DNA of 64,000 nt from Nemertoderma westbladi (Eukaryota > Animalia > Xenacoelomorpha). Below are positions 33,918-64,000 of the stretch, piece after piece; position 1 is the first letter of the stretch, and each line of letters begins with the position of its first letter. Made by a program: the position numbers and the translations under genes. The notes beneath the pieces are model-generated. The model was not told the DNA's origin and did not search any database. It worked only from the letters and a program-made list of their open reading frames with translations. The DNA lies in contig JAUCBJ010009012.1 in assembly GCA_032718475.1 (NCBI GenBank), positions 1 to 64,000 of the forward strand, in the 5' to 3' direction.

Positions 33918-33957
33918 GTTCCTGTTTATGTTAATATAATCGGTTTTAACTACGAAC

Positions 33958-34593
33958 CTTTTTCACATCTCGCCGATCCCACTGCCCTATACAGGGGCCA
34001 CACGCGTTGGCCAGCACCAGTCCCCCCACATCCCGCAGCACTGCCGCCTGTCCGTCCCGCTCCACCGTGGCGCGGATCTGCTCGGACCCCGGGGTGATGG
34101 TGAACGCCGACTTGGCTCGCACCCCCCGCCCCAACGCCTGACTCGCCACGCTCGCCGAGCGGCTCATATCCTCGTACGAGGAGTTGGTACAGGAACCAAT
34201 GAGCCCCACCCGGATGTCGAGCGGCCAGCCCGCCTCGCGGGCCACCGCGGCGAGCTGCGAGATGGGCGTGGCGAGGTCCGGCGTGAAGGGCCCGTTCACG
34301 TGGGGCTCCAGGGAGTCCAGGTTGATCTCGATCAGTTGGTCGTATTGGCAGTCGGGGTCGGCGCGCAGCAACTCGCGGTTGGAGTTGGCCAGCCGCGCGA
34401 TATCGCCGCGCCCAGTCGCCTCCAGGTAGCGCTCCATCGACTGGTTGTACGGGAACACAGAGGTTGTCGCGCCGATTTCCGCTCCCATGTTGCAGATAGT
34501 TCCCATTCCGGTGCAACTCATGGTGTCCACACCGGTACCGTAGTATTCTACTATGGCGCCGGTACCTCCCTTGACTGTTAAAATTCCAGCAAC
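33958..34593 (-). CDS. ACO2: Mitochondrial aconitase, exon 2
   Basis: [17 protein letters not shown]...[13 protein letters not shown]...[12 protein letters not shown]...[11 protein letters not shown], containing the three Fe-S ligand cysteines. AG at 34594-34595, GT at 33957. 636 nt, phase 0 to phase 0. Confidence 0.97.
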
Positions 34594-35103: not shown

Positions 35104-36290
35104 GATGTTGTGGGTTGGGATAGAAGTATTGACAAGACAATTATAACTATCATTATATATATAGGCTTCTTTCCGAGGCTGTTATTATGTATAATTGGCA
35201 GAGCGAGCGTTAGTGAGCCAAAGCTAATCATACATATACGTATAAATTATAATTATATAATTAAACATATAGTGATTGGTCATATGATTAAAGGTAATTT
35301 TTTCACGTAATACGTCATTTTAATTCATAAAATGACCTTTTTACCCTCCTCTGGTAGATGTTGGGTATGTGGTGTGTCTGATAGTACCAGTATACCTAAT
35401 TACCATGAATACTCCACCAAATGTTCGAAGGTAAAATTTTAGGAAAATAAATTTCCTTTATTTCATTTCTATCCATATATTTGTAGGAATAAAGTCCGGT
35501 CTATATTCCTGAGACGTCGGAAGGTTAACAATGATAGTACAGTATTTAAATTTATTCATTTACGTATTGTTTTATTTTATATTTAAACGTCACGTCGTCA
35601 CTCATCACGATTCACGACTCATATGATGCTCCTCTATTTATCATGTAAAGACATCCTTTTAACCTAGAACCCTTATCATATATTTTTCACCATCGTAATT
35701 AATCAAACATTAAATCCTACTTCATGCTCAGCTCATGGTACTTAACTAAACTAGGCCTATAACTTCATTTAAAAGTCATCACTTTAAGTTAAGTCATCAC
35801 TAAAAGTTATCACTTATTGATAATAATACAGTAATAAAGCGAAATTTAAACGTTATAATATTGTCGATAATTGTCGATTTATCCGTCGGTTTAATAAAAC
35901 CTAATTTCGTCGTAAAATAATAATATCTAAATTTACGATTAAAATTACGTAGTCGTAATCTACTGAGGTAGCAGTTACTAAGCTGTCGACTATATATATA
36001 TATGTTGTTGTCGACTAGGTCTTTATAACGCGGCATACAATAATTAATTGCAGAATTATATAACTAGTTCTAAGATATTTTAAGATTTAAAATAAATAGT
36101 TATTGTTTATTGCACCTGGTGTAGTCACTACATTACCGGTAGGTAAAGTACAGAAGTATACTGTCACCTGCAAAAAAATAAAGTTGTAAAATAATTAATA
36201 TAGATAGTCCCGGCCCCGGGAGACTTTATACCTGTAATGAAAGATATCTGTCTGTCCAATAGACCCCCCTTACGGGTAAGTACACATTAC

Positions 36291-37034
36291 CTTTAGTATG
36301 ACGTCCTTGGCCGAAGTCCATCCGTTCATTGACCCTGTTAGATTAACCCCGATAACGCGCGGACACTTTAACTCCCAGGGGATATCAGCCATCACGTCTA
36401 CAGCGTCAGCCCCACCCACCCCGATGCAAACTCCACCCAGCCCGCCGCCGTTGGGGGTGTGACTATCCGTCCCGATAAGCAACAACCCCGGGAACGCGTA
36501 ATTCTCGAGAACGATCTGGTGGATAATCCCGGATCCGGGCTTCCAGAAACCAACGCCGTATTTACCCGCGGAGGTCGATAAGAAGTTATAAACCTCTTTA
36601 TTTACTTCTTTAGCGCGGGCGAGATCTTTATCTCCTCCAACTTGTGCCTCAATAAGATGATCGCAATGGATCGTTGAAGGAACAGCGACGCGAGGTAAAC
36701 CGCTCGATATGAACTGCAACATCGCCATCTGCGCGGTAGCGTCCTGCATAGCAACTCGGTCGGGACGCAGCCGTAAGTAACTGGTGCCACGCGCGATATC
36801 CTGCCCGGAGGGATCCTCTAGATGACCGTATAAAATCTTCTCGGAGAGAGTCAGCGGTCTGTTTAATCGTCGACGGACTACGTCGACTTTCTCCGCTAGC
36901 GAGTCGTAGCTCAGTCGGGTGTCCGGCTCGAATCGGCTCATTGCGACAGCGGCGTATCCGCGGGACGCCGTGCGGAGTCGCGAGAATCGGTAGCCGGCGA
37001 CGAGCGACTCCGTGCGGAGGACAATGGAGGCCAT
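36291..37034 (-). CDS. ACO2: Mitochondrial aconitase, exon 1, with an Arg-rich targeting peptide
   Basis: Motifs [44 protein letters not shown] and [10 protein letters not shown]. Donor GTAATG at 36290. 744 nt = 248 codons. Confidence 0.97.
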
Positions 37035-37549
37035 TTTACCAGTCCGCTAGAACGGTTACTAGGTTACCGTAAACAACCACTACAAACAAAATAATGTCGC
37101 AATGTTTGTATGTGGTATCGGCAACGGTAGGCCTATGTACTGATGTAAACAGAATGAGGATCCGGTAGAGAACGTACGGTAACGTTGAACCTGGGCGAGT
37201 TACTTACACCTGTACACTTACTGCTGTACTGCTCAGTGCAGCAGTGCTCACAGCGGCGGGCAGGATTTCTTTATAATACTACTAGGTACTATATCAGTAT
37301 ATACAGTCTATATACAGTATTTACTATATTACTGCTGTACTGCAGTTACTAAGGTACAATATTATTGGCATTATACTTAGAGTTACGGTCTGACAGTAGC
37401 CTACAATACACAAACAATAATTACTATCAGTTTATCTTTCCAGAAACCGTTTTTTATACTCTTTAGTATTGAGTAAACTATTATTAACTCACAATAATTA
37501 CTACCCTATACCTACAGCCACAGTACAGTATCTATACAAAATAACATCT

Positions 37550-37797
37550 CAATCTCAAATCGGTTTCAGGACTAAACGGACAACTTCCCATGCTCTCATT
37601 TCTCGTCTAGAATTCATTCACAAGTCTCTCGAAGATAAACAATCATCATGTGCAGTTTACATAGACTTATCCAAAGCATTGCGATAGATCATAATAGGGG
37701 AGCTAGAAGCCTACGGTGTTAGGAGTTAGGGGCATACCACTGCAATTATTCACAAGTTTTCTTTCCTCTAGACATCAATTTGTCAAATTAGGAGACA

Positions 37798-37840
<43 letters not shown>

Positions 37841-38300: not shown

Positions 38301-38712
38301 TCTTTTCAAACTATCATTCTACTTGCAACCTACAAAGAGTGGAAATATTTCAATTTTTTGAAAATTTCAATTTTCAAATATTTCAAAAGGCACCTACAAC
38401 TGGAATCCATATAACATTCAACACCCCCCCCCCCCCCCCCCCCCCCCCCCCTCAGGGCACCAACAAACTTCTAGCTTTCTAGCCTTTCCTTCTTTTCCCT
38501 CTATTCAATTATAATTCTTATAAATAACAATGGCTTTGTTTATAATTGGAATATATTATTATGTATAGGGGCCTACTTTATTATTGTTATTTGTTTATTT
38601 AGTTTTAGAAAATATAATTTCAAGTTCATAGAAGTTTAGCTACATGACATAAGACATGCTACAGTATAAGACCAAGGCGTTATATCAGTCATCGGACATA
38701 TTTAAGCACTTT

Positions 38713-40930: not shown

Positions 40931-40966
40931 CTGATTCATGTACTGTTATTTAATCGGCGCTAAATT

Positions 40967-43561
40967 ATGGATGATTCGTGTCTGTTTTGCCGAAAAACAT
41001 CTGGAACACTAATCACTGGAGGACCTATTCGCATAATGAACATCATAGCTTGTAGTGCAGCCCGTGAAAGTGATAACCTCAATGAGATTCTTCAGCGAAA
41101 ACTTAATAACGATTCGGAACTGAATGTTATTTTTCACAAACAGTGCATTTCTACATATACTTCGAAACAACATATAGAGCGTGAGTTAAAACGACGACAC
41201 ATTTCCAACTCACAGAAATTACCAGAACCACATGTGAAAAAATTGGAGGAAATACTAGGTATGTCAAATTTCAAGGGTGTCAATAGCATGTTGAATGGCA
41301 AAGCTTGGCCTAAAGCAGTACGAGGTTTGCGAATGGTTGTGAGTGGTCTACTTAAAGATATAATTAACCCATGTAGTTCACTGGTAACTGTTAGAAAATC
41401 AATAGATAACATGCGATTGTCTCGAACTGGAAAACTGTGGGTTGATTGCCTAATTATTCCAGTTTCAATCATTCATGTTTACATCAGAGCTAAGAACACG
41501 GCGAATTGGAATCTACATATGTGTGCACTTAAGATGATGTTACCATATTTCTTTTCTTCTGGTCACTGGAATTATGCAAGGTACATTACTTGGCATATTG
41601 AAGAAATAGAACGAGGTCTACCAAGTGATGCTCTCAATGCGTTTATAGAAGGAGATTTTGTTTGCAGACATCAGGAAGGAATGTGCAACTCTGTTTGGAA
41701 GGACCAGTTTGGGGAGCAGACCTACATAAGAAAGGGGAAGTCACTTGGTGGATTGAAGGGGAAAACTCTGTCCCAAGAACAGTCGACCATTTGGGTGTTA
41801 TCCCACCACATATGCAATATGTTTGCCTTGGGTGTGGATAACATGTTTGATTCTGGGTTAGTGGAGGATGATGAAGATCGTGAAGGTGATTTAAGACGAC
41901 ATAAAAAGGAAGGCACTAAGCGGCGGCATCTTGATGCCGGTGATAGAATCAGTATACTTCGAACATTAAAAAAGTGCAGGGATCCATTTGGCTTTAATGA
42001 TACTAATGTGTTGATCAATATTTTGAATGGTCGTATAGCTCCACCAGAAGTCAATGTCGATAATGCTGTAAAGTTGGGGTTGGAGTCGGCAAGGGCATTC
42101 AAATCAACTCTCCCAAATGGTTTCTACCAGAGAATAACACGCTCAGTTTTAACTATGGATTTGAAACCCACACGTGGCAAACATGGTTGCAAGACCTATG
42201 ATATGGAGAGATTATACGCAAGACTTCTGATTGTCTCACAGAAACGCAATATTGATTTGTTAGAATTATTTAGCTATGAACTATTCCCATCACCTCCATC
42301 ACTATTCAATGAGTATGGTGAATTACGTTCTGGAAAGAAAACTGATTTGGTTCCTCTGGCAGTAAATGGGGCCAACCCACTCCCTCCTGTTGATTTGGAA
42401 CTAGTTGATGGAAATGCTTCGCTATACCATATTTATTGGACCAACAAGTTATCTGTAGCCGCTTTTTGTGATGCCTACTGCAGCAACTATACAGATACAG
42501 TAGCTGAACACCATCATGAAACGTATATAATATTTGATCGTTACTTTCCAAGTAGCATTAAATCTTTAGAAAGGGAAAAGCGTAATAAATCCAACAGTTA
42601 TCAACAATATGAACTATCACTAGAAACAATTCTACCTTCCAGAGACACTATTATGAAGTCTGTGAACAATAAACAAAATCTTATTCAATTGATGTGTAAT
42701 TATACAACACATAAATCATTACACCTTGTTGGGGACTCTAATAATATATTCGAACATGAAGAAGCTGATGTTACTATTATTAGTTACATGTTAAAGTTAT
42801 CTGATAATGACAACATCAGACATATACAAATAACAACAGATGATACAGACATTTTCGTACTAGCAGTATTCTTCTTCTGGCTATATCAACCAACTGTTCA
42901 ACTCTCCATACGTAGATTTAATGGGAAAATCATAAATATCAACACAACTGCTATCCAACTCGGAAATCAGTGTGCTGGTCTCCTTTCTTTACACGCTTTA
43001 TCTGGTTGTGATACAGTATCATATCCATATGGGAAGGGAAAAAAGAACGCAATGAAATTGCTGTGTAGGTTGCACGAATCTCTGGAGATTTTCTGTGATC
43101 CAAATGTTACAGAAGAAGAATGGCTACAAATAGGCCTCTCGTTCATTATACGCCTCTATGGTGGTGGCATATCGGATACTCTGAATGAACTTCGACATAG
43201 GCTATTCACTACAAAGAAGCAACACCCTAAAGTATTCAACCTTCCCCCCACACAGAGTGCTGCTGTACAACATGTAAAACGGGCTCGTTTGCAAGTTTTT
43301 TTGTGGAGAGCTGCTGATGATACTGCACTTCCACTGTTGGCTGTTAACAAGTTTGGTTGGATGGCGATCAATGGCAAACTGATAGCGGACCCTCGCGTCT
43401 CATCCATTGCCCCAATTTCGATCCTTAAAACTATATGTTGTAATTGCAAGTCCGAAAGCGCCCGTTCTTCCAATCGATGCGGATGTTCTATAGCCGCTCT
43501 ACCATGTACTACAATATGCACCTGCACCACTTCAAAGTGTAAAAATAAATACAATGTTTAA
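40967..43561 (+). CDS. Academ-type protein, 864 aa: partial transposase, XPG/PIN-like nuclease and C-terminal Cys-rich zinc finger
   Basis: LVDG, IIFDRY, HEEAD, DDTDIFVL and LHALSGCDTVS motifs. C-terminal CCNC...RCGC...LPCTTICTC...C. Transposase distal segment W.LH..MLPYFF..GH.NYARY...DQFGEQ. Confidence 0.8.
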   Translation: MDDSCLFCRKTSGTLITGGPIRIMNIIACSAARESDNLNEILQRKLNNDSELNVIFHKQCISTYTSKQHIERELKRRHISNSQKLPEPHVKKLEEILGMSNFKGVNSMLNGKAWPKAVRGLRMVVSGLLKDIINPCSSLVTVRKSIDNMRLSRTGKLWVDCLIIPVSIIHVYIRAKNTANWNLHMCALKMMLPYFFSSGHWNYARYITWHIEEIERGLPSDALNAFIEGDFVCRHQEGMCNSVWKDQFGEQTYIRKGKSLGGLKGKTLSQEQSTIWVLSHHICNMFALGVDNMFDSGLVEDDEDREGDLRRHKKEGTKRRHLDAGDRISILRTLKKCRDPFGFNDTNVLINILNGRIAPPEVNVDNAVKLGLESARAFKSTLPNGFYQRITRSVLTMDLKPTRGKHGCKTYDMERLYARLLIVSQKRNIDLLELFSYELFPSPPSLFNEYGELRSGKKTDLVPLAVNGANPLPPVDLELVDGNASLYHIYWTNKLSVAAFCDAYCSNYTDTVAEHHHETYIIFDRYFPSSIKSLEREKRNKSNSYQQYELSLETILPSRDTIMKSVNNKQNLIQLMCNYTTHKSLHLVGDSNNIFEHEEADVTIISYMLKLSDNDNIRHIQITTDDTDIFVLAVFFFWLYQPTVQLSIRRFNGKIININTTAIQLGNQCAGLLSLHALSGCDTVSYPYGKGKKNAMKLLCRLHESLEIFCDPNVTEEEWLQIGLSFIIRLYGGGISDTLNELRHRLFTTKKQHPKVFNLPPTQSAAVQHVKRARLQVFLWRAADDTALPLLAVNKFGWMAINGKLIADPRVSSIAPISILKTICCNCKSESARSSNRCGCSIAALPCTTICTCTTSKCKNKYNV

Positions 43562-44461: not shown

Positions 44462-44630
44462 AGCAGCCGCTTGGTCTATTGGTAACAATCTGGACTTTCA
44501 TTGAGGAGGCCCAAGGTTCGATCCCTGGACGACCCTCACGGGACTTTAATTGCTGCAGACTAGCTCTATCCAGGCTTTCATCTTTCACTGGTCGATAAAT
44601 TGGAACCATGGAAACTTGGAAAACGGAAGA
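44462..44630 (+). mobile_element. tRNA(Glu)-like SINE with a Deu/Nin-type conserved core
   Basis: A box TGGTCTATTGG, CTTTCA anticodon-like loop and B box GGTTCGATCCC. These are followed by CAGGCTTTCATCTTTCACTGGTCGATAAATTGGAACC, which resembles the Nin-domain consensus as recalled. Confidence 0.7.
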
Positions 44631-44643
44631 GTTAACTGTGTGA

Positions 44644-45862
44644 GATCACCCATGGTGGTGAACAGGCATTCCATTGAGAAACAGAATGGAAGGGTTTACT
44701 GTGGAAGATCACATCACCCATGGTGGTGAACAGGCATTCCTTTAGGATACAGAGTGGAAGGGTTTACTGTGGAAGATCACCCATGGTGGTGAACAGGCAT
44801 TCCATTGAGAAACAGAGTGGAAGGGTTTACTGTGGAAGATCACATCACCCATGGTGGTGAACAGGCATTCCTTTAGGATACAGAGTGAAAGGGTTTACCT
44901 TGGAAGATCACCCATGGTGGTGAACAGGCATTCCATTGAGAAACAGAGTGGAAGGGTTTACTGTGGAAGATCACATCACCCATGGTGGTGAACAGGCATT
45001 CCTTTAGGAAACAGAGTGAAAGGGTTTACCTTGGAAGATCACCCATGGTGGTGAACAGGCATTCCATTGAGAAACAGAGTGGAAGGGTTTACTGTGGAAG
45101 ATCACATCACCCATGGTGGTGAACAGGCATTCCTTTAGGATACAGAGTGAAAGGGTTTACCTTGGAAGATCACCCATGGTGGTGAACAGGCATTCCTTTA
45201 GGATACAGAGTGAAAGGGTTTACCTTGGAAGATCACCCATGGTGGTGAACAGGCATTCCATTGAGAAACAGAGTGGAAGGGTTTACTGTGGAAGATCACA
45301 TCACCCATGGTGGTGAACAGGCATTCCTTTAGGATACAGAGTGAAAGGGTTTACCTTGGAAGATCACCCATGGTGGTGAACAGGCATTCCTTTAGGATAC
45401 AGAGTGAAAGGGTTTACCTTGGAAGATCACCCATGGTGGTGAACAGGCATTCCATTGAGAAACAGAGTGGAAGGGTTTACTGTGGAAGATCACATCACCC
45501 ATGGTGGTGAACAGGCATTCCTTTAGGATACAGAGTGAAAGGGTTTACCTTGGAAGATCACCCATGGTGGTGAACAGGCATTCCTTTAGGAAACAGAGTG
45601 AAAGGGTTTACTGTGGAAGAACACCCATGGTGGTGAACAGGCATTCCTTTAGGATACAGAGTGGAAGGGTTTACCTTGGAAGATCACCCATGGTGGTGAA
45701 CAGGCATTCCTTTAGGAAACAGAGTGGAAGGGTTTACTGTGGCAGATCACCCATGGTGGTGAACAGGCATTCCTTTAGGAAACAGAGAGGAAGGGTTTAC
45801 TGTGGAAGATCACCCATGGTGGTGAACCGGCATTCCTTTTGGAAAGAGTGGAAGGGTTTTCA
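44644..45862. repeat. 63/68-bp minisatellite (about 19 units) directly after the SINE
   Basis: Unit CCCATGGTGGTGAACAGGCATTCCTTTAGGATACAGAGTGAAAGGGTTTACCTTGGAAGATCA, alternating with a +CATCA variant. Confidence 0.95.
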
Positions 45863-46429
45863 CTGGCGGGGAACACTGGCTTACTAATACCTAAACGTTT
45901 CTCCCATTTAAAATTAATATTTGTCACGGTGACAACAAGTTCCCAGGGGCGATACGGCCCTACAATCTTGTGGAAGGGATGAGGGTTTGAGCACATCTTA
46001 TGATGGAATCCATGACAGGTGGCTCTAGTAATAATTTGTCTATGTTTCTGTCCAGGTCCTCTCCAAATGGAATTAGAGATTGCGAGGCCTCTAAGTATCC
46101 ATCAGAAATCTGTCATTTGTTTCTGAAGGCTTTGTACTTGACGATAACATCGTGGTCAAAGGAGTTTTGGCATTTTTGGACTGGTTCCTTAGTAGAGTTA
46201 ACAGCTTTATGTAAACTGAACTGCTATTAATGGTGACGAAGATCGTCGCTTAACCTGCAGGAACTGTTAATGAGTCATGAAATTTGAATGTAACAATGAC
46301 AACTAGAACCGTTCCTATAATAAATTAAATTTGAAAACAGAAATTGTTTCGTACCATTACTGAACTGGGAGGTTCAACCACTATATTGTTTGATGGAGTC
46401 CAATTCGGAGGCAATATTTTCGGCGACAT

Positions 46430-46721
46430 TGTAAAAGCTTTTGCGGATATAATCAGTCCCCCTGCCCGCAAAGTACCGTTGTAGGTGTTTTAACGGACAT
46501 AAAAGTCATTCTTCTATATGTGTGCTTTGGCGGACATGGCAAGGCACAAAACCCGCAATGCGTCAAATACTCTAGCACAGTGTAGCCTTGATGATTCAGA
46601 TTACGACATCTAACAGCTGGTTGCTGGCATGGAAACGGCCATTGGACACATGGTTCTTTGTTTAGCTTAACAGCCAATCAGGGCGATTTTTACTGTCGAT
46701 GTGGAGATATTCTACAGATCG
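46430..46721 (+). repeat. 5' LTR (verifiable part; true end probably farther right, possibly about 47550-47610)
   Basis: Appears identical to 63709-64000 over 292 bp and starts with TG. An AATAAA near 47413 may be the LTR poly(A) signal. Confidence 0.9.
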
Positions 46722-47934
46722 TGCTAGGAGTGTTCAGTCTTACTGTTTTCTTGTTACAGTTGTGTTGTTGCTTCTAGGCCAAGAACATCGGCTCTGGAGT
46801 CAATTTGTTTCAGACTTTAGAAGAAACATTAGTAGGCTTAGATTATAGAACGTATAACTGTTATCGGCACAGTCCGGCAGATCGTATCATTGTTACATTA
46901 TCGGTACATTGTCATATCATATCTTAACCTACCGTCTTAATGGTTTTACTGTTGTTTGGTTGAATATTATTACTTGGAGAACATCGATAAATAACCCAAA
47001 TTTCTCAATTTTCTTGATACACTACAGGTTACATATAGCGATTGCGACTTATATTATCGTGGTTTGTAGTGAGTTTAATGCTATTTGATAGGCTCTACAT
47101 GAGTCAATTGCTGTTCTCTTTATATATGATAAAATTCATTGACGGTCGGCAGATTAGTGTGCAGTATCGTGCGTTACCGGTAGTGTGCATGATTGTGGCT
47201 GATAACTAAGCATTTCCTAAAGAATGCGCCTCATACGTGAATCATAAGCCTTACAGTCTTACAGTTGTGTTTAGTATAAGTCATATCTCTGTTTACCTAG
47301 ATAGAGCGCCACGTCCTAAAGGAACTGTTAATATTTCCCGAAAGTGAATAATACTCGTCAGAAATTATTTATTAACGATCAATCGAATAATACAGTAAGC
47401 TTACACTGCAATAATAAAATCTAAGCCCCATCCGAATCCAGTCTCCCGGGTATATCCAGCGGGTGAATGGACGCGCACTAGGCTGGCTTCGGCTAATGTT
47501 GTGTTTATTGGTATTAAATACTTGTCATTTACTAAAGTCTATTTATAAACCAAAAGACATATAAATTTTGGCAGGTTAAACTGCCAAAGGTCTTCAAAAG
47601 CGCGTACAATAACAGTTATTTTCTTTATTGCAGTAAGCAATAAAGTTGAAAGTACCGGTCGACCGGTAAACCTGAACCGGTACTGCTGTAGGTCCGTAGG
47701 CCCAACTGCCAGAATCGGTACTGCTGTAGGTCTGTAGGCCCAACTGTCCTAACCGGTACTTCCAGTATAAGTACATTAGTATTATTCGATTTTGATTATT
47801 GTATACCGGTAGGTCTCGATATTAAATCGGGGACGCCTGGTTTTTATTGGGATTTTACTTAGGTCTATTTCTGTCAGTTTTATTTCCTAGTAAGTTAATA
47901 TTGAGCTGAAGACGTGTAAGTCTGCTCAGATTGT

Positions 47935-48512
47935 TCAGATAATTGTAGGCCGGACTGTTGTCGGACTGTTGTTGGGTCTGGAGAGATTGCGGCGTGTGTA
48001 GAGTCTGTCCGATAAAGTGCCAGTTAGTAAGTTGGGGCATCTTGAGTTGTAAGGTCAATCCCCTCTTAAAGAATAAGTCGTACTACCGTGTTAGAACGCA
48101 TACTAACTAACCATTTTGGAATCTGCATATACTGTAGTTTATTTAGGCTTGATAGTAGTCTGCCAGCGTTTTAGCCTGTGTTTGTTTGTGTGGTCTGTTC
48201 AGGTACCGTAATAGTTATTACTCAGATATTTTGTAGGCTGGATTGTTGTCTAGCTGTTATTAGGTCTGAAGAGATTGCTGCGTGTGTAGAGTTTGTCTGA
48301 TAAAGTGCCAGTTAGTAGTAAGTTGGGGCAGCCAGAGCTGTAAGGTCAATCCCCTCCTAAAGAATAAGTCGTACTACCGTGTTAGAACGCATACTAACTA
48401 ACCATTTTGGAATCTGCACATACTGTAGTTTATTTAGGCTTGGTGGTAGTTTGCCAGCGTTTGGTTTGTATTTTGTTTGAGTATTCTGTACGGGTAGCGT
48501 AATATTTATTAT
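47935..48512. repeat. Diverged ~290-bp tandem duplication in the retrotransposon leader
   Basis: AAGGTCAATCCCCTC at 48051 and 48342. The core AAAGAATAAGTCGTACTACCGTGTTAGAACGCATACTAACTAACCATTTTGGAATCTGCA is identical in both copies. Confidence 0.9.
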
Positions 48513-49430
48513 TCAGAGTTTATGCGATTATTCGCAACATTCATGTCCCCAAGTTTATTCCTACAGTAATTGTGCTTGTTACACATACCGTTATAGTTAA
48601 ATTAACCCCGGTACTACACGGGCTGCTTGGCGTAGGTAAAGACTGGTGACTTTGTGCTCCGGTCACTCCAGCAGATGCCGTGGTTCTTTTAACTGTTCAA
48701 GTATGTTTAACTGCTAGTTATCTGTTTTAATAAGTACTTGTACCTAATTTAGGGTTTGGTGTACAGTGCTTTCCGAAAGTAATTAGTGTGTAGGCAGTGT
48801 ATTGTGTTGTAAAGTGGTTAATAGGCACGTTGGATCTGGTAGTCCGCGGTAATTAACTTCCAGGTAGGAACACTCCGTGATACATAACGTAGTACCTATA
48901 GCGATACGGCTATAGGTCGTCAGACGGTGGTATTTTTCCTATCTGGACAGCGCAACATATTTACTACTACTTATTATTTTCAAATACCGTAGTACCCTGT
49001 CCGTTGTAATAACCAGAAGTTCTAACCCTTTGTTAGACTGGTTTGTAGACTTCCTGTAAAATTACCCTAAAATTTCATACGTAATATTTTGTTGTGTTTT
49101 AATTAGAGAATTAATCTCACCCGTATCGTAAGTAATTTGTAGTATTAAGTAACTTAGGTAAATTAGAATTATCTGTTTTAGTGTCCAATAAGTAGCACTT
49201 CACTGAGAGCGCACAGCTTCTGTGTAGTGACTCCCCCCAGAAATAATAACATTTATTTCAAATATTGACAAAACCCATTTTAAACGGGTATATATATATT
49301 ATAAATCAACTCAAACGATTTATAAATAGTAGGCCTGCCATACAACTACTGCTTAAATAACGGTAATAAAGTAAGTTAAAGTAACTAAGTAACCTTTAAA
49401 ATTCAGAAATTCAATTATTTAAATAATTGA

Positions 49431-49702
49431 TATACCGGTATTCACGATAGGCCTATTATCTTTATTTCTATAAATTTAGGCTGAAATTATACCGGTATTC
49501 TGTAATTAATTCTAGTCCAGAATTATACTTATATACTATAAGTATAGGCTGTATACCGGTATTCACGATAGGCCTATTATATATTTATATATATTTGTGT
49601 TAAAATTATATACCGGTATTCTGAGACAAACCTAGTTTACAATACTTATATATATTATAAGTGTATACCGGTATTCTAATATACTGTAATAAATTACCGG
49701 TA
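49431..49702. repeat. Cluster of TACCGGTA palindromes in a ~121-bp dimer just upstream of gag
   Basis: TATACCGGTATTCACGATAGGCCTATTAT at 49431 and 49552. Six TACCGGTA copies in the interval. Confidence 0.8.
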
Positions 49703-49782
49703 CTAGGCCAACGGTCATACTGAATTACTAGACTTGCTTTAACTGTAACTATAGCAGTAAGCATTCAACTGTATAGATAAAC

Positions 49783-55700: not shown

Positions 55701-57744
55701 CACAAAGATAGATCAATGGAGACATTGCCCTGGTACGATTAATCCAGCCGATATCGCCTCCAGGGGAGCAACTCCACAGGAACTGATAGATACTCCAGAC
55801 TGGTTGGGTGGACCCGACTTCCTGAGTAAGGAAGAGGATGAATGGCCTCCTCACCTTACTACGGCGGAGATTAGACAAGCCAAGGGAGCGGAGAAAGTCA
55901 AACCTAAAACCCGGGCGAGTAAATCGAAGTTATTTAAACCGACGATCGATCTATCTGTATTACATACTTCCGGAAACGATGCTTCGGATCCACAATCCCT
56001 CGCCACAAATAAGTCTGTTGTAGAAATTAGAGATAGAGATTGGAAATCTGGAACACCAGACGTCTCGCAAGGAATCTCACCCCTGCTGCAGAGAGCAATG
56101 CATCACTACAGTTCCTGGAATCGGCTCTGTAAAGCCGTCACATATTTAAGGCGATGTTTTCATCATCACTACTCCAGGACGAAGACCATTAGTGATACCG
56201 CTCCATTGACATCTGCGCAAGTTCATGTTATTAAAAATTTACCCAAATATAAGACATCCGACCGGTTTCTAAAGGAGAAAATCAGTTACCAGGAGCATGA
56301 AGAAACCAATAAGCAGATACTGAGACTCCTGCAATGCTATGAGGATTCCGATAAGTATTTCCTGTTGTTGAGAAATCCGCAGATGCGCTTAAGGGATCGC
56401 TTCTCTAGCACAATGATAGATGGGTTAATACGTGTTGGAGGAAGGCTCACCAATGCGCCATTATCCTTGGACACTAAATTCCCCATACTCATTAGAAATC
56501 TTGAAGTACAAATCAAGATGATTGTAGATGTTCACAGTAAACTTTATCATGCTGGTAGAGAACGAGTTCTTAGCGAAATCCGAACTCGCTATTATTTTTA
56601 TAAACCCCGTAGAGCTCTGAACCAAGTTCTTAGGAACTGCATACCCTGTAGGAAAGCATTCAGTAGGCCTTTAACACAGCGAGAGGCAGAATTACCTAGG
56701 GAACGAGTAAGATTCTATGAACCACCTTTTACTAATACTGGTGTAGATTTATTTGGCCCTATTGAAGTATATCGTGCTAGGACTATAGTCAAGAGATGGT
56801 GTGTCATCTTCGTATGCATGACTTGTAGAGCCATCCATCTCGATATGGTGAACGATCTATCTACCAACAGCTTCGTCTTAAGTTTACGCCGACAGATCGC
56901 TCGCTTCTTGACGAGTAATACCATGAGATCGGATAAGGGAACGAACTTCATTGGTGCCAACAACGAAATCCAGGCTTACGTGAAGGACTGGAACCAAAGA
57001 CAGGTGGACGATCAGCTAAGGATAACAGCGTCTAGCTGGACCTTCAACGCCGCCGACGCCCCTTGGTGGGGAGGAAGTTGGGAGAGATTAATTAGAAGCG
57101 TCAAGACCGCATTTCACTTTATAGTGCCATGCCGCGCGTATCTCACCGACGAACTTTTGCGGACGTTAATGGAGGAAATAGCTGCCTATCTCAACGAGAG
57201 ACCGCTTATGCCAGTCTCATCGAGTCCCGATTCCCTGGAAGCGCTAACACCCGCGCACTTCCTACTGAAGAAACCTGTAGCCATGCTCCCACGATCGGAG
57301 ATTACCGACGGAGACGAATACTGCCGTCAAACTTGGCAACTTATGCAGTTGCTATCCCGTCGTTTCGCTGACCATTTCGAGAAACATTATCTGCCCACGC
57401 TACAACTTCGAACTAAGTGGTTTGCGCGGCAAGAAAACGTCAGCGCCGGAGATATGGTGCTTATTGTAGATTCAGACCTCCCACGTAAACGGTGGCAGAC
57501 AGGTCGTATCATCGAGACTCACATCTCGGATGATGGTTTAGTACGCTCGGTAGAACTCGTCGTCATGCGGCGTAACTTCAAGAAGCCAGGCATAATCTTT
57601 GAGACGCAACAACTCAATCGCCCAGTTGGTCGTTTATGTTTACTGGAAAGAGACAGAGAACTCTCCGGAAACTATGGAAGGCAAGACATTCTTCCCACGA
57701 CCACCTCCCTAATTCCTCAAACATCTAGGGACTCCCCAACGTGA
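49783..57744 (+). CDS. BEL/Pao Gag-Pol polyprotein, 2653 aa, intact
   Basis: DUF1759-like gag (KFNGDEMKW...LSNGEKLRFL), three Cys/His knuckles, protease ALLDSGS, RT (RVVFDGS, SDIEGMF, YMDD), Pao RNase H (HVFGDAS, PRAEL, WTD), integrase HHCC with D-D-E core (GVDLFGP, SDKGTNF, SWER) and a DUF5641-like tail. Confidence 0.97.
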   Translation: MSDTQQNLSDSLIDTTICDTDRSVERLRKGFSSPPTERKVIPPVVVSDPRLIQHRRSIIGTRAQVKRNQEAAVQQQQHPSQETCSQRPDSSSSSDTVELTPERGVQMAATAYSDPLLTLPAAVLTTIFIAVEEHQVDWARSKRATQDSYAGYAREELMSIVESQWNFPGPGLPLDLSEATWEDIHRMEVTKDTMDPAVWKRSAAGYVQGFFGSLERLEEQLFRQPQGPQEQEELLYQVRERTLRIRLILSAFEETSKRRQDTSLQVAVKTWFQRVGLKVQETAQWKSQLAERPTYEEPTDATLSQEESKGTAERPRTRDAIDIYLSDYQRFLGDEELRRRLAGLRPNSEGAKLVLDSIDAEMLAANKAKFDEKLRLARVQEEQVKKKRIEDRKAAAVAEAERRASEETTQLELENLQETQDNLNKQLTASQMQMMRRSTPKRQGYTSSEESETTDPEGGGNRSRLSRRRKTSHRHKLPDLPPAVRRQLASTDLSSTEPTDQIIQVKRLPTIVDEPEIIRPVVPKATPVLETPVLPELNSKFPLHSITLPVPGRTVHENIPVLEAEREIKDLSPVVPRRPATMLATPASAVEWVEEGRRGMNLLLGQMQETVHQLKGTVRESRAELQEVQQSIALERDKLVNIQKGIPIPPVTLCQPVRSEVSHAQGVEPTRIYTASEVETPIANPIKGDYKPVVNDIPYRPDNNPRNSYTDNSILNNTMAQESFTRQMARTEARQAVKVGEIVKFNGDEMKWLPFNEYYKDSIQNSVLSNGEKLRFLIKCLEGPPKLMALKFIGHPDGLRQVWDTLNIRHGNKDNIAKYLYAKLVAPRNFLSSGIIEFSDEIQEICRQLDWLGKSHEYQSSMVIGAVVSTLPKGGVCTRWDKKVLYMNEQQRRSPTMADLMSFLDGEVKLQLIKQSREKTSENKVSEKPVSRRRVTPVCYTDDGESQASQEEDSGKDTDKFYYVNKTSKDVSKYKARTKDRREQVAKTPPQSPNRMHGRKPEERTRVHHVTQGKVSNIKPNCALCDGPHRLSACAEFLKKSLVDRRKVMWDKRLCYNCLRSGHQRRTCYSDVKCAKCGAKHHILLHSEFERDNPSQVSEPELHVQFSDVNDTDQESEMEGFYTDEFSDANESCYLINTAVYRAHTYEKDTDNEFPPTTFARQPSWKAPTSNVGIREFPVVQVRVHSPNKSYIVNALLDSGSTGTFIDKELAEDIFAGQPKFRTKLNMSGIMQVWKSTLTADYYVGVLSTPQDKLGAQGIRSVKMVAIKNFATTQAELYNWDEDESIQQLKIPRFQTDYPGVQILIGQNAHEALETLEKRPAQPQPLQTYAVRTRVGWYFTGPSRRTLEERMPQERIYQVNDWEVESSEVDELTEGTPYSSDNDDIYQLFDEENTIDLLTENKTWKNQVNLCQLIRPSGPIDYNDELNDEIERYNARTRDELAVRFFTQELVEPNSYDKALSIEEERAKQIQETTTRFLKDQGRYEIGLPFRKREPRFINNRPLAEKRITQLHRRLTANASAKEMYQTQLKKFITKGYAERVPEGTPVTERTYYLTHHYVPKPGKPHEVRVVFDGSALYMGQSLNSELLPGPNLLQSLLGILLRLRQYSISFASDIEGMFLQVKALDRDRDSLRFLWWPEGDLNQKPVEYWMTIQAFGIISSPSNACSVVRTTANDNRDAFSKEVIDNIKRDIYMDDNLKSLPSVEEAIDVAKGTVECLKRGGFRLTKFTSNSREFLEAIPVEDRGTKDLDLIKDDLPETKTLGLKWDTERDILFFQLKQRDNPVRTKRICLSILSTYFDPLGFISPVILIARSLVQQMWLENHSWDDPLKGELLKKWMKWEDSLPAIESFVISRAYFGHVLPTYSYQLHVFGDASDMGIGIVAYLRVETPNGIKVALVTSKALINNKLKVPRAELKAALYATAIGRNVTEQIDYPLEKTVYWTDALLVLEYITNEVCQFSIFVTNRVAIILSRTKIDQWRHCPGTINPADIASRGATPQELIDTPDWLGGPDFLSKEEDEWPPHLTTAEIRQAKGAEKVKPKTRASKSKLFKPTIDLSVLHTSGNDASDPQSLATNKSVVEIRDRDWKSGTPDVSQGISPLLQRAMHHYSSWNRLCKAVTYLRRCFHHHYSRTKTISDTAPLTSAQVHVIKNLPKYKTSDRFLKEKISYQEHEETNKQILRLLQCYEDSDKYFLLLRNPQMRLRDRFSSTMIDGLIRVGGRLTNAPLSLDTKFPILIRNLEVQIKMIVDVHSKLYHAGRERVLSEIRTRYYFYKPRRALNQVLRNCIPCRKAFSRPLTQREAELPRERVRFYEPPFTNTGVDLFGPIEVYRARTIVKRWCVIFVCMTCRAIHLDMVNDLSTNSFVLSLRRQIARFLTSNTMRSDKGTNFIGANNEIQAYVKDWNQRQVDDQLRITASSWTFNAADAPWWGGSWERLIRSVKTAFHFIVPCRAYLTDELLRTLMEEIAAYLNERPLMPVSSSPDSLEALTPAHFLLKKPVAMLPRSEITDGDEYCRQTWQLMQLLSRRFADHFEKHYLPTLQLRTKWFARQENVSAGDMVLIVDSDLPRKRWQTGRIIETHISDDGLVRSVELVVMRRNFKKPGIIFETQQLNRPVGRLCLLERDRELSGNYGRQDILPTTTSLIPQTSRDSPT

Positions 57745-59376
57745 TACGTCTGGAGTGGGTGCATGACTATATTATTCTATCTATTTTATTATATTTTTAT
57801 ATGCGAACGTTATTATGTACTTTATTATAATCGTTTTATTTAATTTTATTTAGTATAATGTTATTTTAGATTATTTAGTAGGTTAGTGCAATATATTAGT
57901 GTTTATTACATAATTACACATAATATATATTTAATATGACGGCGAGAAATAATTCTTTCTTTTTCCTTACTGTCCGTATTATATTATAAATGCGAGACTA
58001 TAGTAAGATGACATGTCAGTACTTATTAAAGTACAATAAAGCTCCTACTATATTTAAGTATTATTGGTAGGCAGAGTATTAGGAATGCAAAGTTCAGATC
58101 CTTGTGTCTCGGCTAAACCAAGCTCTGGGTAGACCTTGGAAACGACTTGCCTCTTCACACTGACATTGCTTCGTGTGATATTGCTCTTCTACCTTATATT
58201 AAATAATACATATAGTAGCGTGATGTCCCTCTAACAGTAGCGTAAAACGCAAATAAATCTGTTAAACCTTTTGACCATCTGTAATTCTAGTCGATTAAGA
58301 TATCGCGGCACCCACCGATATACTTGAAAGACAAATTCTAGAATCAGTGGTTAACGTCCCCAGACAAGTTCTGGAACAAGTTCGGAGACAAGTTCGGTGC
58401 TCATCTTAAATATTAATTTAATATTTATTAAAATCTGTAAAATTCAGATCCTTTAAAATTTCTAGTCAATTAAGATATCGCAGCACTTACCGATACTCTT
58501 AAAAGACAATTTAATAGAATTAAGGATCCTAAGTCCCCAGACATGCTCTGGAATAAAAATTGTGTCAATTTTAACATCAAATAATAAAATTCACGGGAAT
58601 AAATTTAAATTCATATTTTAAATGAATTTCATAAATTGTCATTTTGTGCAATTTATAACATTCCCAAAATTCCATTAATTAATAGATCATGGGAGCGGAG
58701 ATTCATCCTATTGAGTGTATTAGAGTGCGAGAACCTCCAACATATAGTCAATAGCCGATAAAATTAATAAAATCATGTATAAAGAGGATATTGACAATTA
58801 AAGAATTACTATTAAATAGCATTCCAGATCTGTATGCATGAGAATTACCCTAATTCTACCGCTAGCTTTCCATAATGTCACCATAGCAACACCCACACTA
58901 GAATTAGAAGCCAGTTAAAAGAACAATAGAAAGCTTGTCCCATTGCATAGCATAGAGAATACATAGCACACTGTTAGTATCCAAGGATACACAGTAATAA
59001 CGTGACATTCTGGAAGGCACTGACTAACGGACAAATGGCCTGTATGTGTACAATTGGTGACAGTTGTGTGGAATTTATGCGTTTATAGGTGAATGTTACT
59101 GCTAAAGTATGTTTACAGTAGCTAGTTGCAATTGTGAAAGTAACCCAACTCTCCTATAGAAAGAACCTAAAGTGGATCCAAGCCTTTGGGACGGACAGTG
59201 GAGTGACTTGTGCCGGTTATCGTTGTCGTGATGTTGCTACATGTTGGCGTAAACACCGCGACTACGGTACATCGGCGCTGAGAATCCCACTGTCCGGGGG
59301 CAACGAGAGGTAGGCAGCGACGCCCGCTAGCCTAAACATAAACTCATTTTGATATTAATAAACTCAGATAACAGAT

Positions 59377-62300
59377 ATGACGGAGTTGATAGAAGATGAT
59401 CTTGGTATTAGGGAGCGATATACTCTACCTTTACAAGCATTTGTGGATAGCTTGATACGCGGTGAAGCCGATCCAACCATTACAGAGGACGATGGTCATT
59501 ATATCGAACCGCCGATGTCCCAAGAGCAACTTATGCGTGAATTGGACTATCGAAAATTCACCGCTCGCTATACGAATCGTAATGGTACGTATATGGACTT
59601 CTTAACTACCGGCCATCCTATCGATTTACATGATACGGACGATGTAGACACAGAAAGGGAAATGGTTCTATTTAAATATCATACCCAGCGGAGTCGTAAC
59701 GATAAACCGAGAATAGAACATGAAAATTCTATTCGTAACAGACTGGAAAGAGAAAACGTTGAAGAACCGGATAAACGCATCGACTTCAACGACTACCTGG
59801 AATTTTTGAGAGAAACTTATCTCAACATCGCCAGTCAGCAGAACCTAGAGACTCGATATCCTCAAGGTATACATCATGACCCTATGGTAGAACTCAAACG
59901 GCTCTATTTCACTATGATGTATTTTACCGCCGATCGTCCACTACCTGTTATCCCGGATAGTTTTGAACAAATGGAAGAATATTGCAAAACTGGAGAACGA
60001 TCACCCGCGTTTCCCCTGCAGGACGTGCGTCTTTGGTATTATTGTGACGAATGCCCTAGACCCAACCAACAAACTGAAAGACATAAACATCCGCGGAGAC
60101 GTTGCGCTAAACACAGCTTTACGCGTTATACTTACGGGAGTTTCGAGCGAAACCTGTTCGACGTATCACCCACGATCGCTCGTCTTAAACGATCACTAAA
60201 TAAACCTATGATCAGAGTTCCGGAATACTCGGTCAGGCCTCCTCATTCCCTAGTGAGACCTCAAACTCTTGATCCTAACAGTATCACTGATCCTCCCGAA
60301 CTATATTCCCTGTTCAAAGACTTAGTGTTACCCGAACAATTAATCGGTGGTGCTCCGGTAGTGGGTTCATTAGACATTCGCCCATCCTACTTAGCCGGAT
60401 TGGGACGCGGGCAGCTAATATCGCCATTTGATCCTTACAATCGTCCAGGATTAAACCCGATGCAACCCGCCACGGAAGTCGAGGAGAGCGTTATAAGAAA
60501 CGCTTTAGACGCCATTCGACAGAAGATCGGAAAGGGAACACAAGATTGTTTAGAGAAACGTAAATTACAACAACAAGTCCAATCGGTGAAGGAGTTAGCC
60601 TTGCCACAGTTCGATAGAGAAATCCAAAACCTCTAGGAGGACATCGAGCTTGGACGCACATATTCTCTACAAGAGTTTTTAGATGAACGCTTACAGAGAC
60701 AAGCGGAAGAAAATCTACTCGAGGAGAAACACACGAAAATGGACGAGAGAGAAGAAGCCGCTTTAGCCCAACCTGAAGCTCAAATCCTTATGACAGATCT
60801 CTACTCTAAAACCGTCCGTCATCCCTCGATGATTCCACATTTCGGAGATAAACTCTTCGCGACGATACAACCTCAACCGGTTGATATCAGTACAGGATCG
60901 CAAAATCTTATCGCTGACGCCCCTATGTTACAGCGTCCGCCAATCGAGGCCGCTCGTGTTGACGGTATACTCGTTGAACCTCCGGACAATCGAGCGGATC
61001 TTGTCCGTCGTATGGTACACGATGTCAACATACGCGCTAGACCTTTACAGAACTCGTTTTATGGGATTAAAGACCACCCTTATTATGTTAATCTGACTCA
61101 ATATTATATGGTAAAACCAGAAGACCTGACGCATAAGTTAAAGTTTCTACCACTAATAAATCCTCTAGACGTTGTCGAACTCGAACAATTGCAGAAACAT
61201 CTGGATCAGTTAGTAAAGGTAAACTCATTTAGAAAACCATATAACATTTCTCGAATCGAGAAGGATATAGAACCTCCTTATAATCTCGATGGATTTATTA
61301 AAACTCGATTAGTCCATTGGAATCTAGATGTATTATTTGAAGAAGAGAAAATACAAAGATATGGAAATGTGGAGACGTATACCACTCGGCACATGAAGTA
61401 TAGTGATCTCCCTGACGCTAACCAATGCACCACCTTGTGGCATCCAGTAGGGATGACCCTAGAGAACGCCACCAAGGAGTGGAATGAAACTCTTAATGTT
61501 ATTGAGATGTATGGAGTTGTCACCTATGATAATGAAGGTAGCGTTCCTGTCGGAGAACTAGGAACTACGCGCATGATCCACATATGCGGATTAGCTGGTT
61601 CTACCCACATGTTTACTCGAGCGTGTTCCGACGTGATTGATTATTCCTTTGAAACTCTCACCGAAACACAAAAGAATCTCCGACATGGACAATTCGAACT
61701 CGCGCAGCGTTACGTCATTGACACCGAACGCAAACCGGCCATGGGTATCGATGGATCGATGTTACCCCAGCCCGTACTCGAGATGTTGTTCAACGAAAGA
61801 ATCCTTAAAATCGGCTCAGCTGTTTATGGAGATCTCCAAAACGACTTTCGGAATATGGAAAATATCCCATATCCTTTCGTGGATACGCAGCTGATTGCTC
61901 CCTAGGCAGAAGGTCGAGGTTTCTTCCGCACCTTGTATGCTAATACGTCTAGCAACATTACAAAGGTGCAACGAACTTCCATCGGACATCTTGCCTTTCA
62001 GGAATACGGATGGAATTTTAAGGTCGGAAATCCCATCAACTATCAACAAGTATACGGAGACCATTATTCTCGATTATACTTTGATGGACCATTGACCGCA
62101 CCTGGTGCCGTGTATAGCTTCATGAGTGTTCCACTCCGTCCCTCCTTAGCTATCTACACGATCTTTGAAAACACCGCACTTGCCGGTTGGCTAGCCGATG
62201 TGTGCAGTTGTACTATACGCGCCCATCCATTAATACTTGGGACCAAGCTCGCTAAGCTAGATGAACATAATAAATTCATCCGCTTCGAATGTTTCCGGCG

Positions 62301-63630
62301 ATTTTTAACCCCGTTCCGCAACGTGGATAGCCAATTTAAAGACCGCGCTTTGACTAAGCTCAGCCTAAGAAGCTCAGCTGCAGAGAAGTTAGATAGCGCT
62401 GGATTTGCCATTTTCAAAGAGATTTGTATATCGAACTTACACTCCTCTGTTATACAAAGACCTCGAATCCCCACAGGTTATTCTGTCGTGGAAATTCAGA
62501 CAATAGGTCCACTTGAAGAGACAGACACGCCCACCTCAGCTATGCACTGGGAAGACGAACCAATATGTCTAGAATCTGAGGAGATTCAGCCTATCGCGCC
62601 CCGGAACAGCGACAACGATTACATCCTAGAATGGTATCAAGGTCCACAGTGTCTCACTGCGTACGATTATCGACATGCCAACTATGTTTCTAGGCAACGT
62701 TGTCGGTTATGCGCATCGAGAGACCATGTTACGCCCATGGACACAAACGTCCGCTGTTCCTATTTCCAAGAACAACCGACGATGGAAATTTATTGCGCAT
62801 ATTGCAGACTCAATAACTTGCATATTTTTGCGGTTTGCCCTCAATTTATGACTCAATGTCACCATTGTCAACTAAAGGGACACGCCAGTTTCGATTGCCC
62901 TTTTAATCACGATTTGGAAAGCGTAGATGAAATGATCACACTACGTTACATCAGAGCTTGGGAAGCGAACGCTGATTTACATTGTGATTCGCGCCATCGC
63001 TTTTATCCTGGACGCGCTTACGAAGGAGTTTATGCGTTCCATCCTTATCTATTCGCTTCTGTCGAACAGAAATCACGCATATCGAGTTACGAACTACTGA
63101 AGCGCGTCGGAGAATGTATTCCAACCAAATTCGTACGCAAATTTCTCAGGAGTGTTAATCCTAGCGACCTTCATTCCTATAACTTAATCAATTATATCCG
63201 TCAGGATCTGGACTATGGAGACTTATTTGTTAACTCACACCCCGAGTTACAGGAAGTATATCGACGGCCTTACGAATACCGAGCCCGCGAACGCGAGTTG
63301 GAAAGAACCATTAAACCCAGGAGGTTTCTGACTGCCTATGGTCCACCCACGGCTCTCGTTCAGACCACTCGTAAAGGACCCGTAAGAGCGGCTGTCCTAA
63401 AACGCGCTCTCAAGGCCGTTAGACCCCTCTCCCCCGACGTTGATGTCAATCAACCCGGTACTTCGACTGGCGGATACACCGACCATAATCCTACACCCTC
63501 TGATGCAATCATATTGCACCCTTCACCCAGGAGTTATAGCCCTCCTTGTAAAGTGGCTCGCCCCAAAGAGAAAAGGACTCTGGCCAGCTTTAAAAAACTG
63601 CGTAAACGCCGTCCACGCAAGAAAGACTAA
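59377..63630 (+). CDS. Accessory ORF2 of the retrotransposon: one ~1417-codon frame with two internal TAG codons, DEDDy-like exonuclease and zinc knuckles
   Basis: ORFs 59377, 60739 and 61933 share a frame, and the gaps are open apart from TAG at 60634-60636 and 61903-61905. Exonuclease motifs VVTYDNEG, ILKIGSAVYGD, FVDTQ and PLRPSLAIYTIFE. CCHC-type motifs at about 62701-62898. Confidence 0.75.
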
Positions 63631-63698
63631 CTGTTTAGAGTATTTACGTATATTAGAAACTGTGATTTTTGTATATTTATAGACTTGAATCCCATTTT

Positions 63699-63708
63699 CT
63701 GGGAGCGG
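63699..63708 (+). other. Polypurine tract
   Basis: CTGGGAGCGG lies immediately before the TG of the 3' LTR. Confidence 0.75.
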
Positions 63709-64000
63709 TGTAAAAGCTTTTGCGGATATAATCAGTCCCCCTGCCCGCAAAGTACCGTTGTAGGTGTTTTAACGGACATAAAAGTCATTCTTCTATATGT
63801 GTGCTTTGGCGGACATGGCAAGGCACAAAACCCGCAATGCGTCAAATACTCTAGCACAGTGTAGCCTTGATGATTCAGATTACGACATCTAACAGCTGGT
63901 TGCTGGCATGGAAACGGCCATTGGACACATGGTTCTTTGTTTAGCTTAACAGCCAATCAGGGCGATTTTTACTGTCGATGTGGAGATATTCTACAGATCG
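63709..64000 (+). repeat. 3' LTR (partial)
   Basis: Direct copy of 46430-46721. Confidence 0.95.

Follow-up and report, generated by a model that had tools for sequence, protein, structure and literature searches.

Nuclease cargo in long terminal repeat (LTR) retrotransposons has been published for rotifers, with no function shown there. According to Rodriguez et al. (2017), third open reading frames (ORF3s) of the DEDDy exonuclease type, carrying a DEED motif, are found in the rotifer elements Juno and Vesta and are common to Athena (PMC5408684), a precedent also mentioned in an initial annotation of the DNA considered here. In the available portions of three further papers, exonuclease cargo is mentioned for rotifer elements only or in general terms (PMC6338049, PMC6431247, PMC5718144). 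The BEL/Pao elements, grouped as Belpaoviridae, are quoted as 4.2–10 kb in size and as having gag and pol, to which env alone may be added (PMC8742986); the same size range is given in PMC3118150, in the accessible text of which the word "exonuclease" occurs 0 times. No report of exonuclease cargo was found in the literature on BEL/Pao elements, the coverage of which left subscription journals and Repbase annotations mostly outside. Here, a 64,000-nt stretch from Nemertoderma westbladi (Xenacoelomorpha) is analyzed, namely positions 1 to 64,000 of the forward strand of contig JAUCBJ010009012.1, assembly GCA_032718475.1, referred to below in its entirety as the window. It carries a BEL/Pao element with an additional gene, ORF2, which is in all probability a selected accessory gene and for which a DEDDy-like 3'-5' exonuclease domain followed by Cys/His knuckles is predicted.

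The BEL/Pao element and its ORF2 family

The window element is a young BEL/Pao LTR retrotransposon. Its LTRs both open with TG and are identical at 292 of the 292 nucleotides compared (Table 1); as the 3' LTR runs past the window end, the 3' end of the 5' LTR cannot be fixed, and the size of the element, counted from 46430 to the window end at 64000, is at least 17,571 nt. The distance from the LTR start to gag is 3.35 kb (46430–49782), the longest ATG-initiated ORF there being 61 aa, and this 3.35-kb stretch plus ORF2 bring the BEL/Pao element to at least 17.6 kb. The gag-pol product contains Peptidase_A17 (PF05380, E 3.6e-36), DUF5641 (PF18701, 1.4e-19), DUF1759 (PF03564, 1.4e-10) and Integrase_H2C2 (9.9e-7), the first three above their own Pfam cut-offs; PF05380 is described as a marker of Bel/Pao elements (PMC3985635). 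Three Cys/His knuckles in the gag part are followed by the protease DSG at ~53370, the reverse transcriptase (RT) YMDD at 54859, RNase H at ~55393 and the integrase from ~56743, i.e., in the protease–RT–RNase H–integrase order of BEL/Pao. The Pfam domains, the gag-pol order and the LTRs thus agree with the BEL/Pao host proposed initially, and ORF2 sits within the LTR pair, between pol and the 3' LTR. Rfam matches across the whole element, tRNA genes in the 64-kb window and a relative in viral contigs were sought, and none was found.

ORF2 starts with an ATG at 59377 and contains 2 internal stops, compared with 71–98 in the five other frames; the composition of its span predicts ~75 (P about 5e-30). 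Both stops are TAG, at codons 420 and 843, the latter falling inside the nuclease domain, between ExoII and ExoIII, so the window copy is unable to make the full ORF2 protein without read-through. The initial annotation had described a frame of ~1417 codons in the env position; the span and the position hold, but the reading is not uninterrupted, a break that its title omits. Reassignment of TAG was rejected, as was programmed read-through, since TAG is not used anywhere in the 2653 codons of gag-pol and neither stop is matched by the sister contigs. The reported absence of a transmembrane segment and of an evident signal peptide was reproduced (the top 19-residue Kyte-Doolittle mean is 1.21, and the N-terminus is acidic, as judged by eye); ORF2 displays neither the signal peptide nor the membrane anchor of an env glycoprotein.

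Part of the stretch is present in six of the seven listed sequencing runs (four studies), and four runs were compared, contigs only; one of these four could be the window's own source. The bins of 57000–63720 are covered 30/30 in each of the four runs, which come from four studies, and ORF2 is thus not a one-off insertion. As the sister contigs range from less than 90% to more than 99% identity, the family of ORF2-bearing elements is diverse. At both TAG codons all contig depth in all four runs reads another letter (31, 10, 2 and 5 contigs at codon 420; 52, 26, 2 and 4 at codon 843), and both stops therefore look private to the window copy.

The differences between copies were assessed in the best-supported 40 of 1853 rows (2%) of the difference table, 32 of which lie within ORF2; none of these 40 touches a catalytic codon. 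Among the ORF2 differences shared by copies, 19/20 are synonymous, against an expected fraction of 0.34 for transitions (binomial p 1.7e-8, the two stop rows excluded), whereas 9/10 of those private to the window copy are non-synonymous (shared vs private, Fisher p 6.7e-6). This pattern suggests purifying selection on the ORF2 family together with neutral decay of one inserted copy, and ORF2 appears to be kept family-wide under selection. It must be weighed against this that the rows used, being the best-supported 2%, are linked and non-independent.

Variants deleted for part of ORF2 exist as DNA: in three of the four runs, contig joints pass over 2.7–2.8 kb of the gene, a segment in which the entire nuclease domain lies. 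Since variants without the nuclease region exist, ORF2 is probably an accessory acting in trans. The joints lie at 59741–62546, 59750–62551 and 60731–63469, and in two of them the opening ~120 codons are retained along with the knuckles. Variation of contig depth along ORF2 is not taken as ranking the parts of the gene.

The predicted nuclease domain and its relative

The residues that the initial annotation had assigned to the exonuclease motifs, D718 (61528) and E720 (61534) of ExoI, D819 (61831) of ExoII, and Y927 (62155) and E931 (62167) of ExoIII, are all placed correctly. An exhaustive phmmer comparison of ORF2 residues 642–1208 with 1.84 billion representative proteins gave two matches. 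One of them, P0003, is a trypanosomatid repeat protein and was rejected as spurious; the other, P0002, is a 648-aa ENA protein from a 9.4-kb contig, forming a single-member cluster (E 5e-7), with 30% identity to ORF2 over 171 aa and a match in the knuckle region as well. P0002 has the same layout as ORF2, an exonuclease-like domain and then three Cys/His knuckles, and keeps D-x-E, D and Y-x-x-x-E, the last catalytic position being Glu in both proteins. In shuffle tests, 0/500 shuffles reach the score of the ExoII–III region and 0/500 that of the knuckles; no significant likeness was detected after the knuckles (400/500) or in the N-terminus (273/500). Aligned with E-INS-i, D-x-E falls on D-x-E across a 29-residue insertion in ORF2, and Y-x-x-x-E on Y-x-x-x-E.

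The same family is reached from several directions. RNase D (TIGR01388) is the best of the 18,950 NCBIfam models for the ORF2 domain, with E 0.0028 and 17 bits against a cut-off of 299, and P0002 matches PF01612 on the same stretch (E 0.2, 11.9 bits against a cut-off of 23.6); neither ORF2 nor P0002 reaches any curated cut-off. For P0002 residues 25–265, 25 of the 30 Atlas matches carry PF01612, the best scoring 0.94 with 173/256 features, and the other five are unnamed clusters. A two-row profile of ORF2 and P0002 scores 11.0 bits against E. coli RNase D, a score reached by 0/1000 shuffles, with D819 opposite the ExoII Asp of that enzyme; for three neighbouring E. coli proteins the score is either negative or unreported. 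Among 365 motif matches in metagenomes, 2 were confirmed, both PF01612-like, one above the PF01612 cut-off and the other at E 0.046. Extension from these two yielded 34 more proteins out of 7992 candidates; PF01612 is recorded for 26 of the 34, and 33 are fungal by name. The hidden Markov model built from 23 of the 34 (the other 11 lack the anchor motif) gives ORF2 12.6 bits over 27 residues (0/500 shuffles), and D819 aligns with the fungal ExoII Asp, as it does with that of RNase D; the fungal set was, however, picked with a motif derived from ORF2, a circularity by which it adds little to the assignment, and no special kinship with the fungal Dada-like exonucleases is claimed.

Several results weigh against the assignment. 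No exonuclease was returned for the ORF2 domain by Pfam or by any of four PDB searches, made with sequences or profiles, and the significant profile matches are all confined to the ExoII region. Taken by itself, the ORF2 ExoI segment is not significantly similar to P0002 (134/500 shuffles reach the score), and its register depends on the method, L-INS-i placing D-x-E otherwise. ExoIII reads Y927-x-x-x-E931, with Glu for the canonical Asp. PF01612 is recorded for 34% of the members of the top named Atlas cluster, and the Atlas calibration excludes protein parts. The AlphaFold pLDDT (predicted local distance difference test) is 32.1 for the single sequence and 37.1 for a four-row alignment led by P0002, so the DnaQ/RNase H-like fold stays putative. 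A word-index search with full ORF2 passed 0/7993 candidates, one with the P0002 domain found only P0002 itself among 949, and matches were sought in phages, viral contigs and a first metagenome scan, with none found. The sole PHROGs match, phrog_1674 "exonuclease" at E 0.3, was not counted.

Because its ExoIII is YxxxE, the domain is filed as DEDDy-like and non-canonical. On the converging weak matches, it most likely adopts the exonuclease-family fold, and that the nuclease is still catalytic is somewhat favoured. Of the exonuclease claim made initially, the weak but concordant profile evidence speaks for it and the Glu in place of the last Asp is confirmed; direct Pfam or PDB matches, on the other hand, are missing.

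All four Cys/His motifs listed in the initial annotation are present in ORF2, although the canonical CX2CX4HX4C spacing occurs in only one of them (1161–1174); the others are CX2CX5HX4C (1140–1154), CX2CX4HX9C (1109–1127) and a loose cluster at 223–243, absent from P0002. Structures of retroviral nucleocapsid proteins are matched by the knuckles of P0002 at an E of about 1e-4, and the Atlas leads from the ORF2 knuckle region to CCHC proteins (up to 0.84). The basic tail noted previously is there, and it is a possible nuclear-import or RNA-binding segment. The N-terminal 690 residues match no Pfam or NCBIfam model; residues 1–419 gave nothing under E 0.2 against PDB, and the C-terminal part likewise gave nothing relevant.

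Possible functions of ORF2

A counter-silencing, RNA-trimming role is the reading tentatively preferred here. The ORF2 product, a predicted DEDDy-type 3'-5' exonuclease fused to putative RNA-binding zinc knuckles, would degrade or trim silencing RNAs derived from the element, and the family would thereby escape host small-RNA control. As pol and ORF2 are separated by 1.6 kb of non-coding DNA, the protein would have a message of its own, produced by splicing or from an internal start. Its knuckles and basic tail would serve to bind RNA, and they may also direct it to the nucleus or nuage. D718, E720, D819 and E931 together with Y927 would coordinate two metal ions and shorten nucleic acids from their 3' ends. 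The targets would be small RNAs, their precursors or antisense transcripts, and action in trans would allow domain-lost variants and the window copy still to be mobilised. This reading is favoured because ORF2 is an add-on to the BEL/Pao replication set, is lost in cis, and has a precedent in viral ExoN: arenavirus ExoN suppresses innate signalling (PMC7968707). A role in silencing is also raised for the rotifer DEDDy ORF3s in PMC5408684. In the same source the rotifer ORF3s are without a clear link to copy number, which counts against such a role, and the present results do not separate counter-silencing from a packaged helper or an RNA adaptor.

It is possible, though doubtful, that ORF2 is instead a packaged replication helper. 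Bound to genomic RNA through its knuckles, it would enter the particle, and the nuclease would there trim primers or 3' nucleotides added to cDNA without a template, or proofread reverse transcription. The nucleocapsid likeness of the P0002 knuckles fits this role, as does a nuclease family that includes WRN and the proofreading domains of DNA polymerases. Processing of 3' ends has been proposed for the Dada exonucleases (PMC3706591) and is the first suggestion for rotifer ORF3 (PMC5408684). A size of at least 17.6 kb, compared with the typical 4.2–10 kb (PMC8742986), moreover recalls the ExoN-linked growth of nidovirus genomes (PMC7968707). On the other side stand the description of BEL/Pao as having no gene beyond gag, pol and an optional env (PMC8742986), the separation of the 1417-aa ORF2 from Pol, and the existence of domain-lacking variants, though supply in trans would account for the last. 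In its boldest form, which is highly improbable, the element would represent a giant BEL/Pao lineage whose own DEDE-y exonuclease with nucleocapsid-like knuckles enters the particle and proofreads reverse transcription; if true, nidovirus ExoN would have a counterpart here, and the genome size, close to double that typical of the family, would be accounted for.

Somewhat less probable than a packaged helper is a non-catalytic RNA adaptor, in which the Asp-to-Glu change would have weakened or abolished nuclease activity and the remaining fold would bind element RNA and move or shield it, in the manner of EXD1, Maelstrom-like or Egalitarian-type proteins. The ExoIII Glu of both ORF2 and P0002 and the insertion of ~29 residues that ORF2, compared with P0002, has behind strand 3 would suit an adaptor; however, four carboxylates and the Tyr persist in two proteins that are ~30% identical, and dead DEDD members usually lose acidic residues outright. 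In PMC5408684, inactive DEDD derivatives that keep RNA binding are noted, yet rotifer ORF3s with a D-to-E change (DEED) are judged possibly active.

That the domain is no DEDD nuclease at all, the motif order being coincidental and ORF2 a selected protein of another fold, is improbable: the unreached curated cut-offs of ORF2 and P0002, the low pLDDT and the confinement of matches to 27–46 residues would agree with it, but several separate lines converge on one family, and two proteins of 30% identity agree in the order and spacing of the motifs. It is still less probable that ORF2 was picked up a single time and is now decaying, the element having no further use for it, since the two stops in a copy with intact gag-pol and identical LTRs, and the deletion variants across ORF2, are set against 19/20 synonymous shared differences in the best-supported rows and stops seen in no compared contig.

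If the preferred counter-silencing role, or that of an RT proofreader, were true, an animal retrotransposon nuclease acting against small-RNA silencing or on reverse transcription would be a notable result. The element also offers a host in which counter-silencing, the processing of cDNA or RNA ends and RNA transport can be put to the test.

Surroundings and comparison with known systems

The coordinates of the element's features are collected in Table 1.

Table 1. Features of the BEL/Pao element in the window (positions in nt).
Feature	Position	Strand	Remarks
5' LTR, start	46430..46721	+	TG start; identity to 63709–64000
Remaining LTR and long non-coding leader	46722..49782	+	duplicated ~290-nt unit, 47943–48171 / 48231–48462
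gag-pol ORF, single and intact, 2653 aa	49783..57744	+	no internal stop
AT-rich spacer between pol and ORF2, 1.6 kb	57745..59376	+	no ORF >35 aa
ORF2, 1417 codons and stop	59377..63630	+	TAG at 60634–60636 and 61903–61905 in the window copy
ORF2, N-terminal 690 residues	59377..61446	+	Cys/His cluster at residues 223–243
ORF2, predicted DEDDy-like 3'-5' exonuclease domain	61447..62220	+	D718, E720, D819, Y927, E931
ORF2, three Cys/His knuckle-like motifs, residues 1109–1174, the last canonical CCHC	62701..62898	+	zf-CCHC_3 E 0.084; common to P0002
ORF2, basic tail	63538..63627	+	14 K/R in the last 30 residues
Purine-rich tract, 8 nt, resembling a polypurine tract, directly before the 3' LTR	63701..63708	+	
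3' LTR, incomplete at the window end	63709..64000	+	identity to 46430–46721

Elsewhere in the window, two long coding exons rich in GC at third codon positions, on the minus strand at 33946–34593 and 36270–37046, belong to an apparent host gene amid satellites and transposons, presumably mitochondrial aconitase. On the plus strand, an intronless ORF of 865 aa at 40964–43561, with terminal Cys clusters and no Pfam match at E 0.1, is probably a predicted DNA transposon gene. Large satellite blocks at ~5800–33400 and 44580–45880 comprise a 29-nt unit (at least 615 overlapping matches), a 28-nt unit with extreme GC skew at ~26–33.4 kb, and a 63/68-nt unit that lies just upstream of the BEL/Pao element. 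Runs of poly-G and poly-C at 37797–37839 and 38424–38452, ~600 nt apart, fall within what by eye is an apparent decayed RT fragment of a long interspersed nuclear element.

Compared by description, ORF2 differs from the rotifer ORF3s in its 1417 aa, its three C-terminal knuckles and its unexplained N-terminus of 690 aa. None of the Juno, Vesta or Athena DEDDy ORFs surfaced in the word-index, phmmer or extension searches. The rotifer hosts are elements of the Juno, Vesta, TelKA and Mag lineages, which we take to be gypsy-like, whereas ORF2 resides in BEL/Pao. According to PMC5408684, the DEDDy ORF3 of Juno, Vesta and Athena/Terminon is, like ORF2, a non-env ORF located after pol, with an RNase D-like domain and without transmembrane or fusion features, and one D-to-E change is found among the catalytic residues of both, giving DEED in rotifers and DEDE in ORF2. 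The synonymous bias of ORF2 contrasts with the neutral-looking within-genome variation reported there for rotifer ORF3s, in which the env and GDSL types were tested (PMC5408684).

The Dada DNA transposons of Laccaria and Ectocarpus likewise carry a WRN-like exonuclease, the ExoII of which is similar to that of ORF2, but in Dada the domain is inserted in a DNA transposase and is canonical DEDD (PMC3706591). A similar ExoII region (12.6 bits) also links ORF2 with the fungal proteins that combine PF01612 and DUF6729 (PF20499). In these proteins (P0004–P0037) the exonuclease is followed by a DxxH-like motif, as in the Laccaria Dada transposases described in PMC3706591; judged by eye, DUF6729 may mark Dada transposases. 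With the cellular DEDDy nucleases (RNase D, WRN, Mut-7, Rrp6, EXD1/2; PF01612) ORF2 appears to share the order of ExoI D-x-E, ExoII D and ExoIII Y, and its FVDTQ strand aligns with LIDTQ of RNase D, while the YxxxE of ExoIII, the insertions, the fused knuckles and the absence of a detected HRDC or helicase domain set it apart. The subfamily signals are mixed, ExoII resembling WRN and Dada and the next strand RNase D, as judged by eye against Fig. S1 of PMC3706591. Finally, Belpaoviridae with an env-like third gene agree with the window element in their LTRs, in their continuous gag-pol and in having a further gene where env lies; in the window element, by contrast, that gene is without membrane features and the size is nearly twice the upper quoted value (PMC8742986).

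The recurrence of such cargo suggests that retroelements capture 3'-5' exonucleases repeatedly. DEDDy cargo is known in rotifer LTR elements and Dada; the BEL/Pao case would add a new host, a different catalytic variant and fused knuckles, in a family that is present in many copies, shows signs of selection and includes natural deletion variants.

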